64,000 nt of DNA, taken from positions 1,279 through 65,278 of the forward strand of contig CAKUOX010000003.1 of NCBI GenBank assembly GCA_934670175.1, written 5' to 3'. Made by a program: the position numbers and the translations under genes. Every line of letters begins with the position of its first letter. The stretch's first letter is position 1. This document shows positions 31,108 to 33,834 of the stretch, piece after piece. The DNA is from an uncultured Clostridia bacterium (GTDB taxonomy: Bacteria; Bacillota; Clostridia; Christensenellales; Aristaeellaceae). The notes beneath the pieces are model-generated. The model saw only the letters and a list, made by a program, of their open reading frames with translations, was not told where the DNA came from and ran no database searches.

Positions 31108-32235
31108 ATGCAAAAGGGATACAAGCGCAACGGCAAGGGCATGGCCGTACTCCGCTTCTTTATTGGACTGATCGTGATCGCCATCATTGTCGGCGTAATC
31201 TGGTTCTTCCTGCAGAAGGTGGACTATTCCGACAAGCTGGCCGACCCGAACGTCGCCACGCGCCCCTATGTCGAAATGACCGCCGACCCCAACGCGCCGC
31301 TCGCGCTTGAGCCGACCACTGGTCTCGACACTGGCGATGCCGTCGACGATTTTACCAACAGCTTTGATCTGGGCGGCGATACCACCGGCGATTTTGGCGG
31401 CGGCGATTTTGTAGATCTGACGCCGAGCGATACGCCGGAGCCTACCGCTACGCCGACAACGGAACCCACGCCGGAGCCGACCGCCGTTCCCACGCCGGAA
31501 CCGACGGCCACGCCGGAGCCCACCCCCGAGCCCACGGCGACGCCCGAGCCGACGAAGATCCCCTCTTCCAAGCTCAACAAAGCGCGCACCAAGGGCTTCA
31601 AGGTTCCCGAGCCTTCTACCAACGGCGAAGCGGCGCTGACCAAATTCTATGTATCCGAGCCGAACAACAACCGCTATGTCGAGGTCAACGGCTACTGCTA
31701 CATCAATGACGCCACCTTCGACGGCAATGGCGTGAAGGCGTATCTGATCGCCACACCGGTTTCCGGTAAGGGCATTACCCGCGCCTACAAGGCCAATATG
31801 GTGCAGGGCATTTCCGGCGACCCGCACACCGATGCTGTGTGCATGAACGCGGATTGCACCGATTTCAGCGTCATATTCACCGTAAGCAAGTATAAGAACG
31901 GCGAATATGAGCTGGGCGTCGTGCTGGATTACACGAAGGAAAACGCCGCCGAGCCTGCCTATGCCTACTATAAGCTCGGCAAGACCTTCACAGTGGAGAA
32001 GGGTGCGATCGTACAGCAAAATGAAAGCTCCGACCAGCCCTTCGGCGCAGCCACCGGCTCTGACGCGGATTCTCAGGGCCTGAGCTTCTCCATCGCCGCC
32101 TCGAATGCCGCGGCATCCTCCGAAACGGCCGCGCCGGGCGCAAAGGAATTCCAGGCGCCTGAAGAAACGGCGACCGCCGCGCCCCGCACCGACGCCTTTG
32201 GCGCTGCGCTCGACGATACTGCTTCCATTGGCTGA
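31108..32235 (+). CDS. Membrane-anchored extracytoplasmic protein with a Pro/Thr-rich linker, function unknown
   Basis: ATG at 31108, 8 nt after GGAGGAG. TM segment AVLRFFIGLIVIAIIVGVIWFF, followed by TPEPT repeats. Confidence 0.6.
   Translation: MQKGYKRNGKGMAVLRFFIGLIVIAIIVGVIWFFLQKVDYSDKLADPNVATRPYVEMTADPNAPLALEPTTGLDTGDAVDDFTNSFDLGGDTTGDFGGGDFVDLTPSDTPEPTATPTTEPTPEPTAVPTPEPTATPEPTPEPTATPEPTKIPSSKLNKARTKGFKVPEPSTNGEAALTKFYVSEPNNNRYVEVNGYCYINDATFDGNGVKAYLIATPVSGKGITRAYKANMVQGISGDPHTDAVCMNADCTDFSVIFTVSKYKNGEYELGVVLDYTKENAAEPAYAYYKLGKTFTVEKGAIVQQNESSDQPFGAATGSDADSQGLSFSIAASNAAASSETAAPGAKEFQAPEETATAAPRTDAFGAALDDTASIG
31432..31554 (+). repeat. In-frame tandem (T/A)PEPT-coding repeats
   Basis: Encodes TPEPTATPTTEPTPEPTAVPTPEPTATPEPTPEPTATPEPT. 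Confidence 0.7.
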
Positions 32236-32257
32236 TAAAACCTGATATGCACGCGAT

Positions 32258-32295
32258 CCGCCTGACCATTGGTATGGTCAGGCGGTGATTTTTTT
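32258..32295 (+). terminator. Intrinsic terminator
   Basis: CCGCCTGACCA-TTGGTA-TGGTCAGGCGG, then TGATTTTTTT. Confidence 0.8.
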
Positions 32296-32548
32296 GGGCA
32301 GCCGAATGGGCGTTATACCCAGCTGAGCTTCGGGCATTAGAAAGAACTTTAGTAGAAGCCATGGAGTCATATGTCAGATGTGGCTCCACAGATTAATAGC
32401 ATCAGGATATTGATAATATGTAAGATGCGAAAGGCACTTGAACGAATTTCTGAAAAGAAAATTGCAAAGCAAAAAGTGTGATTGACAATTCGTTCGATGC
32501 CATCTTTAGAAGACGACCACAGGCTATATACCTTTACGGGGCCTGGTC

Positions 32549-32573
32549 AAACCACCCGTTCAACGGGTGGTTA
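32549..32573. repeat. Hairpin repeat copy 1 (AAACCACCCGTTCAACGGGTGGTTA)
   Basis: 9-bp stem with a 5-nt loop. Identical to the 25-mer at 32773-32797. Confidence 0.8.
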
Positions 32574-32772
32574 CAGGATGTTGACAAAGTCAACAGACTG
32601 CCAGACGCTGAAAAACCCTGCAAGGCAAGAAAACGCGAGCTGCAAATGAGGGCGCATACTTAGGCGTATGTAACCGATTTTGCAGCCCGCGTTGACGAAG
32701 TAAGCAGAAATTTCAACTTCTCCTGAAGTTGTTCACGAAATTTCTGCGGTTGCGGGGTTTGTCAGTGGATTG

Positions 32773-32797
32773 AAACCACCCGTTCAACGGGTGGTTA
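32773..32797. repeat. Hairpin repeat copy 2
   Basis: The identical 25-mer, 224 nt downstream of copy 1 and in the same orientation. Confidence 0.8.
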
Positions 32798-32810
32798 TGC
32801 CTCAGGCAAC

Positions 32811-32856
32811 AAAGCCCCCCGATTCGGCCTTACCGGCGCGGATCGGGGGCGGCTTT
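32811..32856 (-). terminator. GC-rich hairpin after the NagB-like gene
   Basis: CCCCCGAT / ATCGGGGG core with AAAGC/GCTTT flanks. On the minus strand it is followed by UUUGUUG. Confidence 0.5.
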
Positions 32857-32871
32857 CATTCACCTGTCAAA

Positions 32872-33834
32872 TCAGTTGGTATCCGGGCAAAGCGGGCCAG
32901 CCAGCTCTTCCATGAAGAACAGCTTGCCGGGCATCGTGGGGATCCAGCTGGAGGTGATCTGCTTCACGGGGCCATAACGCAGCGTCATCCAGAAGCTCAT
33001 GCCCTGCCACTGCATGCCGCGGGACAGCACGCCGTCCGCGCCGCCGATGGCATAATCAGAGTTGAAGATGATGGCGGGGCCGATGGTATTGGCATAGCAG
33101 GGAATCAGCGGCCAGCTGGAGCGGAACGACGTGATGGCGTTCTGCTCGATCGTGAAGGGATGCAGACGCGCGCCGACGCGATAGGGCGCAGCCTTCCACG
33201 CCTCAACGCTGTCATATTCAGCGGCGAAATGCGGCTCCCAGAACGCGATATGGCACATGCGGCCGATGCCGTATACCAGCACCTGTTTGGCGCCCTCAGC
33301 CTTCAGCTTCGCGATCTTCTCCGGATAGGTGGGCAGATTTTCGCGCGTGGCGAAATTGCGCTGATTCTCGGGCACGGTCAGCTCGCCGAGCGGGCCATAG
33401 AACGCCTCAACCATCGCGTTCTGGAACGCGGCGGGGTCGTTGGCGGGCAGCGTATTGCCCTCGGCGTCGGACCACTCGTCCATATTGAAGCCATACACAT
33501 GCTTGCAGTCCACATTCCATTCCTTCAGGAAGTAAACCGCCCATTTGTACATGCCCATCGGGCCGACCGGCAGAATGAGGATCAGCTTGCGGCCCTCTTC
33601 CTTGGTCTGGCGGATCTGCATGGCGATTTCATGGCCCATGTACGCGCCAAACTCTTCAAGATTGGTGCACTTCACGGGATTAAAGCCCTCGTTCCAGAAG
33701 CTCTGGCGGTCATACACGGTTTCAGGAGCGTTGGAAACGCATTCCTTGATGCGCTCAATGTCCCAGCCCTGAGGCAATACCTCGCTGAAATAGGAGCCCT
33801 TCAGCGTATTGGTCATATCCATATAGCAACACAT
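32872..33834 (-). CDS. Glucosamine-6-phosphate isomerase / 6-phosphogluconolactonase-family protein (NagB-like)
   Basis: 320 aa, with family-like core segments LILPVGPMGMY and GIGRMCHIAFWEP. The start is uncertain (MDMTNT or MTNT). Confidence 0.65.
   Translation of the reverse strand: MCCYMDMTNTLKGSYFSEVLPQGWDIERIKECVSNAPETVYDRQSFWNEGFNPVKCTNLEEFGAYMGHEIAMQIRQTKEEGRKLILILPVGPMGMYKWAVYFLKEWNVDCKHVYGFNMDEWSDAEGNTLPANDPAAFQNAMVEAFYGPLGELTVPENQRNFATRENLPTYPEKIAKLKAEGAKQVLVYGIGRMCHIAFWEPHFAAEYDSVEAWKAAPYRVGARLHPFTIEQNAITSFRSSWPLIPCYANTIGPAIIFNSDYAIGGADGVLSRGMQWQGMSFWMTLRYGPVKQITSSWIPTMPGKLFFMEELAGPLCPDTN

Follow-up and report, generated by a model that had tools for sequence, protein, structure and literature searches.

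A hairpin-rich intergenic region of a Christensenellales genome is very probably an IS1182-type MITE inserted into the end hairpin of an IS200/IS605-type relic

INTRODUCTION

Insertion sequences of the IS1182 family are listed in ISfinder with direct repeats that range from 0 to 60 bp. Two family members from staphylococci, IS1272 and TnSha1, insert into terminator hairpins without primary-sequence specificity, and their insertion reportedly removes part of the hairpin and leaves no duplication (PMC4923244, PMC5678879). Other IS1182 members target palindromes (Siguier et al. 2015, as cited in PMC4923244). Duplication of a whole hairpin has been published for IS1630 of Mycoplasma fermentans (Calcutt, Lavrrar, and Wise 1999, PMC94219, as relayed by PMC2853133), and two reviews of MITEs make no mention of hairpin duplication (PMC3184786, PMC10969869).

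Here we describe a 199-bp MITE in an intergenic gap of an uncultured Christensenellales bacterium. Its full-length relatives carry a DDE transposase of the same family as that of IS1272 and TnSha1 (NF033551; DUF772 plus DDE_Tnp_1_6), and it shares with those two elements terminal inverted repeats and insertion into hairpins, often terminators, without primary-sequence specificity. It is unlike them in being a 199-bp, nonautonomous element of uncultured gut bacteria and in duplicating the whole hairpin (14 to 42 bp), whereas theirs is partly deleted; the behavior of the IS1182 family is therefore not uniform. Whole-hairpin duplication is a likeness to IS1630 as that element is described in PMC2853133, but IS1630 belongs to the IS30 transposase family, is autonomous, and comes from Mollicutes. 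Like the Correia, RUP, and ERIC MITEs (PMC3184786, PMC10969869), the 199-bp element is small, noncoding, multicopy, and intergenic, with inverted repeats and strong foldback; those MITEs make short fixed duplications (2 to 10 bp, e.g., TA), whereas what the 199-bp MITE duplicates is a structure whose length varies. Both the targeting of hairpins by IS1182 members and the duplication of a whole hairpin by IS1630 are already in the literature, and the site is of a known type and not a new system.

RESULTS

The window, by which we mean the whole stretch of 64,000 nucleotides that was analyzed, belongs to a 2.56-Mb Christensenellales MAG of 140 contigs that is 93% complete. Within it, two convergent genes are separated by 636 nt between their stop codons (positions 32236 to 32871), and the features of this gap are collected in Table 1. 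A peptide-pattern search of a one-genome-per-species collection found no relatives of the 383-aa protein encoded upstream. A previous reading of the letters alone (the sequence-only reading) had credited both flanking genes with terminators of their own, which holds for the left gene; the hairpin behind the right gene was not called by the scan and is probably the terminator of that gene. The whole gap has a G+C content of 48%, below the 56.8% of the window and the 58.9% of the genome. The same reading had placed the genome above 60%, which is too high, and had put positions 32401 to 32460 at about 32%, in agreement with the 31.7% measured.

Table 1. Features of the intergenic gap and its flanking genes (window coordinates)
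Feature	Position	Strand	Description
Upstream gene, 383 aa	31084-32235	+	No Pfam match
Intrinsic terminator of the 383-aa gene	32258-32295	+	12-bp stem, then T7
Putative relic, left and main part; transposase-less IS200/IS605-type (PATE-like)	32300-32573	+	43% G+C; left end GCCGAATGGGCGTTATA
Putative decayed left-end subterminal hairpin of the relic	32318-32334	+	CCCCCAGTTCAACTGGGGG in G007 and G009; sequence comparison
Putative right-end (RE) unit, IS200/IS605-type	32477-32573	+	~97-nt unit follows Y1 tnpA in G005 and G007
Hairpin copy 1	32549-32573	+	Relic's RE hairpin; left member of the target-site duplication
199-bp MITE	32574-32772	+	No coding capacity; copy family; ends match IS1182-family elements
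Left terminal inverted repeat	32574-32600	+	CAGGATGTTGACAAAG; terminal hairpin arises by pairing with an internal inverted copy
Central conserved MITE hairpin (second inner structure)	32632-32693	+	Copy alignment, fold
Right subterminal MITE hairpin (third inner structure)	32704-32747	+	Homologous to the hairpin of an IS1182 remnant in G003
Right terminal inverted repeat	32757-32772	+	GTTTGTCAGTGGATTG (reverse complement CAATCCACTGACAAAC); sequence comparison
Hairpin copy 2	32773-32797	+	Right member of the target-site duplication; no difference from copy 1
Putative last IS200/IS605-type right-end bases, TGCCT	32798-32802	+	Uninterrupted copies read ...GGTGGTTATGACT
Hairpin behind the 320-aa gene	32816-32849	-	Minus-strand tail CTTTGTT; missed by a simple terminator scan
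Downstream convergent gene, 320 aa	32872-33834	-	No Pfam match

Two copies of a 25-nt hairpin, AAACCACCCGTTCAACGGGTGGTTA, stand in the gap in the same orientation, 224 nt apart, and 100 shuffles of the window produced no match that would amount to a second copy by chance. The arms of the hairpin are 11 nt each and perfectly complementary around one central base. The identity, orientation, and period that had been described for the pair were confirmed, and the 9-bp stem assigned to it proved slightly short, as RNAfold gives 10 bp. All three structures described between the copies were also present, namely, the palindrome GTTGACAAAGTCAAC (32580 to 32594), a central hairpin with arms at 32632 to 32659 and 32666 to 32693, and a hairpin whose perfect 11-bp stem joins 32704 to 32714 with 32737 to 32747. 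The loose similarity seen upstream of both copies (TTGAC...CGGGG) did not survive scoring: global alignment of the two 90-nt stretches gave a score of -14 against a shuffle mean of -14.2, and 254 of 500 shuffles scored equal or better. Across the genome, the 25-mer occurs exactly at 2 sites and, when up to 3 mismatches are allowed, at 2 others; two weaker, partial hits, on contigs C19 and C52, came from BLAST.

BLAST of the gap against its own genome revealed that the 199 nt lying exactly between the two hairpins are a dispersed repeat, with 58 hit groups at about 50 loci. Copy number, which the sequence-only reading had named as a check, came to about 50 loci for the 199-nt core and 2 exact copies for the 25-mer. 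About 21 copies are full-length short forms (190 to 200 nt, 89 to 96% identity), about 10 are long forms of ~305 nt, two are larger, and the remaining groups are fragments, many of them at contig ends. All copies in this genome start with CAGGATGTTGACAAAG and finish with GGGGTTTGTCAG-GG-CTG, and the ends form an imperfect terminal inverted repeat, CAG-N5-TGACAAA; the palindrome at 32580 to 32594 is included in the left terminal hairpin. The MITE was found in 10 of 41 related genomes, and its 5' hairpin pattern recurs at more than 100 loci in MAGs of Christensenellales and other gut Clostridia, including Candidatus Pullichristensenella species. No ORF of at least 40 aa lies wholly inside the MITE. 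Two plus-strand ORFs that touch it (32478 to 32663, 61 aa, and 32482 to 32649, 55 aa) begin in the IS200-type relic described below and enter the first 90 nt of the MITE, and a 364-aa plus-strand ORF begins at 32770 and overlaps the minus-strand 320-aa gene. The earlier view that the gap holds mobile-element debris, and not a host gene or RNA, was right.

Several variants and smaller features of the family were also observed. In the long variant, the apical loop of the central hairpin contains ~110 additional nt that form a module of three hairpins; examples in this genome (G000) are C25:17371-17677, C36:17027-17333, and C6:12112-12421, with about 7 more. At several long copies the left and right flanking hairpins differ, a pattern that points to recombination among copies at a later stage. 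Solo 27-nt perfect palindromes, CAGnnTGTTGACAAAGTCAACAnnCTG, each equivalent to two abutted left inverted repeats, lie directly after terminator hairpins (C61:4266-4292, C96:1209-1235, C9:21332-21358, C136:1403-1429, and others in this genome). These palindromes show compensatory changes at their nn positions and stand at a hairpin without a duplication, and they may be remnants or minimal elements. Inside the MITE of the window, a simple scan found a weak minus-strand terminator-like hairpin (32616 to 32630; 6-bp stem, then T5) that could stop antisense read-through.

The fold of the MITE was evaluated with an alignment of 61 distinct copies that have a mean identity of 76%. The consensus comprises the terminal hairpin, a long-range subterminal helix, and the central and right inner hairpins, four elements in all. 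Pairing was found in 98% of base-pair cells, and 26 of the 53 pairs had changed on both sides, a count that does not represent independent events because the copies are related by descent. When the partners were slid by 1 to 3 columns as a control, pairing was 30 to 42% and only 5 to 15 pairs had changed on both sides. These data show that the master copies of the MITE kept their fold, either for transposition or as RNA.

An alternative explanation for such conservation would be that the repeat is a host-selected structured RNA, a 3'-UTR stabilizer or an sRNA, whose fold is kept by selection at the RNA level. The excess of both-side changes over the slid control fits this idea, as does the position between terminator hairpin and T-tract, where an inserted element would become part of 3' UTRs; MITE copies at terminator sites are probably cotranscribed as 3' UTR. 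However, the covariation fits equally well with selection on master copies for transposition, acting on transposase-bound repeats and hairpins, and the copies share descent, so that the counts are not independent. Nor does Rfam offer a match: the cmscan check that had been suggested, run over positions 31900 to 33200 at E ≤ 10, returned only chance-level eukaryotic matches. No host function is indicated for the MITE, and its position harms no gene. We consider a host RNA unlikely, and it would be compatible with a transposon origin, to which it only adds a secondary function.

The ends of the MITE point to its parentage. A congener (G009:C135) contains a 1531-bp IS of the IS1182 family with the ends CAGACCGTTGACAAAGT and CAGCCCACTGACAAAGT; compared with these, the ends of the MITE, CAGGATGTTGACAAAGT and CAATCCACTGACAAACC, match over the terminal 16 to 17 nt on both sides. 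The transposase of this IS is a 499-aa ORF that scores 438.6 bits on NF033551 (IS1182 family; cut-off, 270 bits) and contains the domains DUF772, DDE_Tnp_1_6, and DDE_Tnp_1. A terminator hairpin of 31 nt, CGTCCCCGCATTCTTTGCGAATGCGGGGGCT, is perfectly duplicated on the two sides of the IS, whose left end (locus L198) has, judged by eye, a terminal hairpin like that of the MITE. At another locus of the genus (G003:C34), a fragment of an IS1182 transposase is followed by a right end that is homologous to the right ~95 nt of the MITE and 90% identical to it over the terminal 29 nt. The shared ~95 nt correspond to the right hairpin and inverted repeat, and this IS1182 right end also abuts a hairpin. 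In light of the matching ends, the right-end homology, and the hairpin duplication, the 199-bp element is best read as an internal-deletion derivative (MITE) of the IS1182-family IS of the genus, with the same insertion habit.

The window's own genome, at 93% completeness, has no match to the IS1182-family transposase model NF033551, and most congeners have one. A search of this genome for inverted end pairs 0.5 to 4 kb apart yielded only a 608-nt variant and no autonomous copy. In public MAGs, the 3 kb downstream of 53 unpaired 5' hairpins contained housekeeping genes and no transposase. Since the own genome lacks an IS1182 transposase, we infer the mobilizing enzyme from the relatives.

The same absence of a cognate transposase could be taken to mean that the MITE is moved by some other enzyme, for example, one that is IS30/IS1630-like or IS5-like, and that the similarity of its ends to IS1182 elements is coincidental or convergent. 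Hairpin duplication is not confined to IS1182 relatives, as the IS30-type element IS1630 also duplicates hairpins according to PMC2853133, which cites PMC94219. Against this stand the terminal 16 to 17 nt, which match IS1182 elements at both ends, and the ~95 nt of subterminal homology to IS1182-family elements that belong to the same genus and make the same hairpin duplication. A non-IS1182 transposase is thus quite improbable, and we retain the IS1182-type origin of the MITE.

The sites occupied by the family show what the MITE does to its target. Among 20 short copies, 18 to 20 are flanked on both sides by one complete GC-rich hairpin that is specific to the site. In the window's own genome, these flanking duplications are 17 to 35 nt long with 0 to 3 mismatches between the two copies; flanks swapped between different MITE copies reached a best score of 7, versus 17 to 32 observed. 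Hairpin duplications of 14 to 42 nt were likewise present at 41 of 54 complete MITE copies in other Christensenellales MAGs. A T stands before the MITE at 20 of 27 and 39 of 58 copies, and an A stands behind the MITE at 23 of 27 and 46 of 58, from which a preferred target of the form 5'-A[palindrome]T-3', with duplication of the whole palindrome, can be deduced. Given the flanks of the MITE family and the duplication around the full-length IS1182 element, we conclude that the two 25-mers of the window are a target-site duplication made by an IS1182-type MITE and not, as the sequence-only reading had proposed, pairing ends that enclose a single unit. A few copies, mostly long variants, have unlike hairpins on their two sides, which under the MITE explanation requires later recombination or decay.

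Before insertion, the window site would have read ...GGTCAAACCACCCGTTCAACGGGTGGTTATGCCTCAGG..., with a single hairpin and no insert. This exact empty junction had no match in metagenome contigs, and when empty sites reconstructed for the window locus and the first 14 of 21 other loci were compared with 12 genomes of the genus, only the coding flanks matched. The proposed check for empty sites was therefore negative in both collections; we attribute the lack of an empty allele in relatives to intergenic DNA that is too diverged or to flanks that are not syntenic.

Paralogous sequences provide a substitute for the empty site and also identify the hairpin itself. The 25-nt hairpin ends a ~97-nt RE unit (32477 to 32573 plus TGCCT) that has 12 copies in G005, often ~100 nt from contig ends, and that comes immediately after an IS200-type Y1 transposase gene (HIHML and YI-N motifs) in G005 and G007. 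Uninterrupted copies of the unit in G005, G007, and G009 consist of a single hairpin followed by TTATGACT; the order in the window is hairpin-MITE-hairpin-TGCCT, and the single-hairpin copies stand in for the target before its interruption. The window's own genome has a partial, likewise uninterrupted RE copy that includes the hairpin (about 48 nt, 85% identity) after a degenerate tnpA on contig C56, where a 150-aa, N-terminally truncated Y1 ORF reaches 59.9 bits with PF01797 and 63 with NF033573. The position of the RE unit behind Y1 tnpA, both in the relatives and on C56, identifies the 25-nt hairpin as the subterminal hairpin at the right end of an IS200/IS605-type element.

The remainder of the low-G+C stretch resembles the rest of such an element. 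The relic is 72% identical over about 280 nt to a 280-nt element without tnpA in G009 (C9:26664-26945), which is the only BLAST-level match to its left half. Judged by eye, that G009 element has a left end, GCCGAATAGGC...CCCCCAGTTCAACTGGGGG, which resembles the one on a full IS200-like element in G007:C21. The relic's own left end, GCCGAAT...CCCAG..CTGGG, matches G007 and G009 over ~50 nt by eye only. Scored local alignments of window positions 32300 to 32476 with the regions upstream of loci L221 and L214 and of the C56 gene did not outscore shuffles; the window is consequently linked to a full element by way of the G009 copy. In G007 and G009, the left-end hairpin has the same center, TTCAAC, as the right-end hairpin. 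Inverted repeats and a target duplication were not seen for the relic, and the bases 5' of the left end in three copies are GGGCA, TGTAA, and TGTAC. Taken as a whole, positions 32300 to 32802 appear to be a transposase-less, PATE-like IS200/IS605 relic with both ends recognizable and interrupted by the MITE. The relic is like PATEs in lacking tnpA and in keeping subterminal hairpins homologous to those that flank Y1 tnpA, and unlike them in being single copy and decayed in its own genome and interrupted by a second element.

The tnpA genes themselves look defective. The C56 gene (C56:1218-1763, locus L003) lacks the N-terminal ~35 residues, and the tnpA of G007:C21 (locus L221) has an in-frame TAG within its RGY-VDTV motif.

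The sequence-only reading had likened the two hairpins to IS200/IS605 (PATE) ends, which is right for the hairpin, a homolog of the RE hairpin behind Y1 tnpA, and wrong for the 249-nt unit. Under that extended idea, the whole 249-nt unit would be an IS200/IS605-type PATE or a REPIN that is moved in single-stranded form by a Y1 (HUH) transposase. The right-end origin of the hairpin agrees with it, and a search for the mobility genes that had been proposed found one degenerate, truncated Y1 tnpA on C56 and one TnpB-like ORF on C39, with no RVT_1. Y1 elements make no target duplication, however, and their left and right hairpins are not identical direct 25-mers. Furthermore, at its other ~50 loci the core has unrelated hairpins at its borders and was never seen with the 25-nt hairpin, which has only 2 exact copies in the genome, and the classical terminal inverted repeats of the core match a hairpin-duplicating DDE (IS1182) element. 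Movement of the 249-nt unit by a Y1 enzyme is accordingly highly improbable. A REP or REPIN served by a RAYT was also considered and rejected, as the palindrome is not present at tens to hundreds of sites and the sole Y1 gene is a truncated IS200-like copy; the high-copy REP that had been envisaged is at odds with a 25-mer of which the genome has 2 exact copies and a few degenerate ones. The lone TnpB-like ORF (C39:11322-11720; OrfB_IS605, 44.7 bits; 552-aa open frame) has no link to the window.

The remaining suggestion, that the hairpins are a1/a2-type stems around a reverse-transcribed structured RNA in a retron-like or msDNA-producing unit, has in its favor the geometry of identical, inverted-repeat-containing ends around a hairpin-rich 200-nt core, and we dismiss it as extremely improbable because the genome has no RVT_1 reverse transcriptase, Rfam has no matching family even at E ≤ 10, and the core is a ~50-copy repeat with different flanking hairpins at each site, which a retron does not predict.

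DISCUSSION

The region very probably records two nested transpositions, in which an IS1182-type MITE landed on the hairpin of an older, decayed IS200/IS605-type element. In the first event, a ~280-nt IS200/IS605-type element, or a transposase-less derivative of one, would have entered immediately behind the upstream gene's terminator. This element, which ends in the subterminal hairpin AACCACCCGTT-C-AACGGGTGGTT, would have decayed since, and such a decayed element would explain the low-G+C stretch. In the second event, the 199-bp MITE, mobilized in trans by an IS1182-type DDE transposase, would have inserted at the hairpin of the relic.

We suggest the following course for the second event. 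The transposase would bind the terminal inverted repeats of the MITE (CAG-N5-TGACAAA) and capture the palindromic target by its structure, as a hairpin or cruciform, and not by its sequence. Strand joining would link one element end to each foot of the palindrome, on opposite strands, and repair of the gaps would copy the entire palindrome, so that the duplication would be as long as the hairpin (25 bp here and 14 to 42 bp elsewhere). The family of copies, the matching ends, the duplications of hairpin length around MITEs and around a full-length IS, and the IS200 source of the hairpin are all observed; mobilization in trans, staggered joining at the hairpin feet, and the order of the two events are what we infer.

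To our knowledge, strand transfer measured by structure has never been shown biochemically for any DDE transposase. A more general proposition would be that IS1182-type transposases of gut Clostridia recognize an extruded cruciform or hairpin by its shape and join the element ends at its feet, that the target structure rather than the enzyme sets the length of the duplication, and that the fold of the MITE is required or has been co-opted in 3' UTRs; we offer this combination tentatively, as possible but on balance somewhat doubtful. At the window site, the struck hairpin is the end of a transposon and not a terminator, which suggests that the target was chosen by shape and not by function. 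About 75 hairpin-length duplications, 14 to 42 bp long and flanked by A and T, form a data set on how IS1182-type enzymes choose and cut structured targets, and a set of ~100 insertion sites that follow the 5'-A[hairpin]T-3' rule would make the structure-recognition reading directly testable.

The MITE and relic account completely for the odd intergenic region and remove a retron-like candidate. They also add a well-populated, previously undescribed MITE family of uncultured Christensenellales to the few transposons documented to duplicate whole hairpins. Duplications of this kind call for caution in annotation pipelines and MITE finders that assume short fixed duplications.

A separate repeat family came to light as the left flank of one MITE copy. 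It is ~180 nt long, starts with CAGTTTTTGCTAAAATCCTTCGGATTTCC, is unrelated to the MITE, and has ~90% identity among copies, of which there are at least 11 in the window's own genome and many in congeners. Copies lie at C2:26340-26521, at C3:72699-72881, just past the end of the window, and on at least 9 further contigs.
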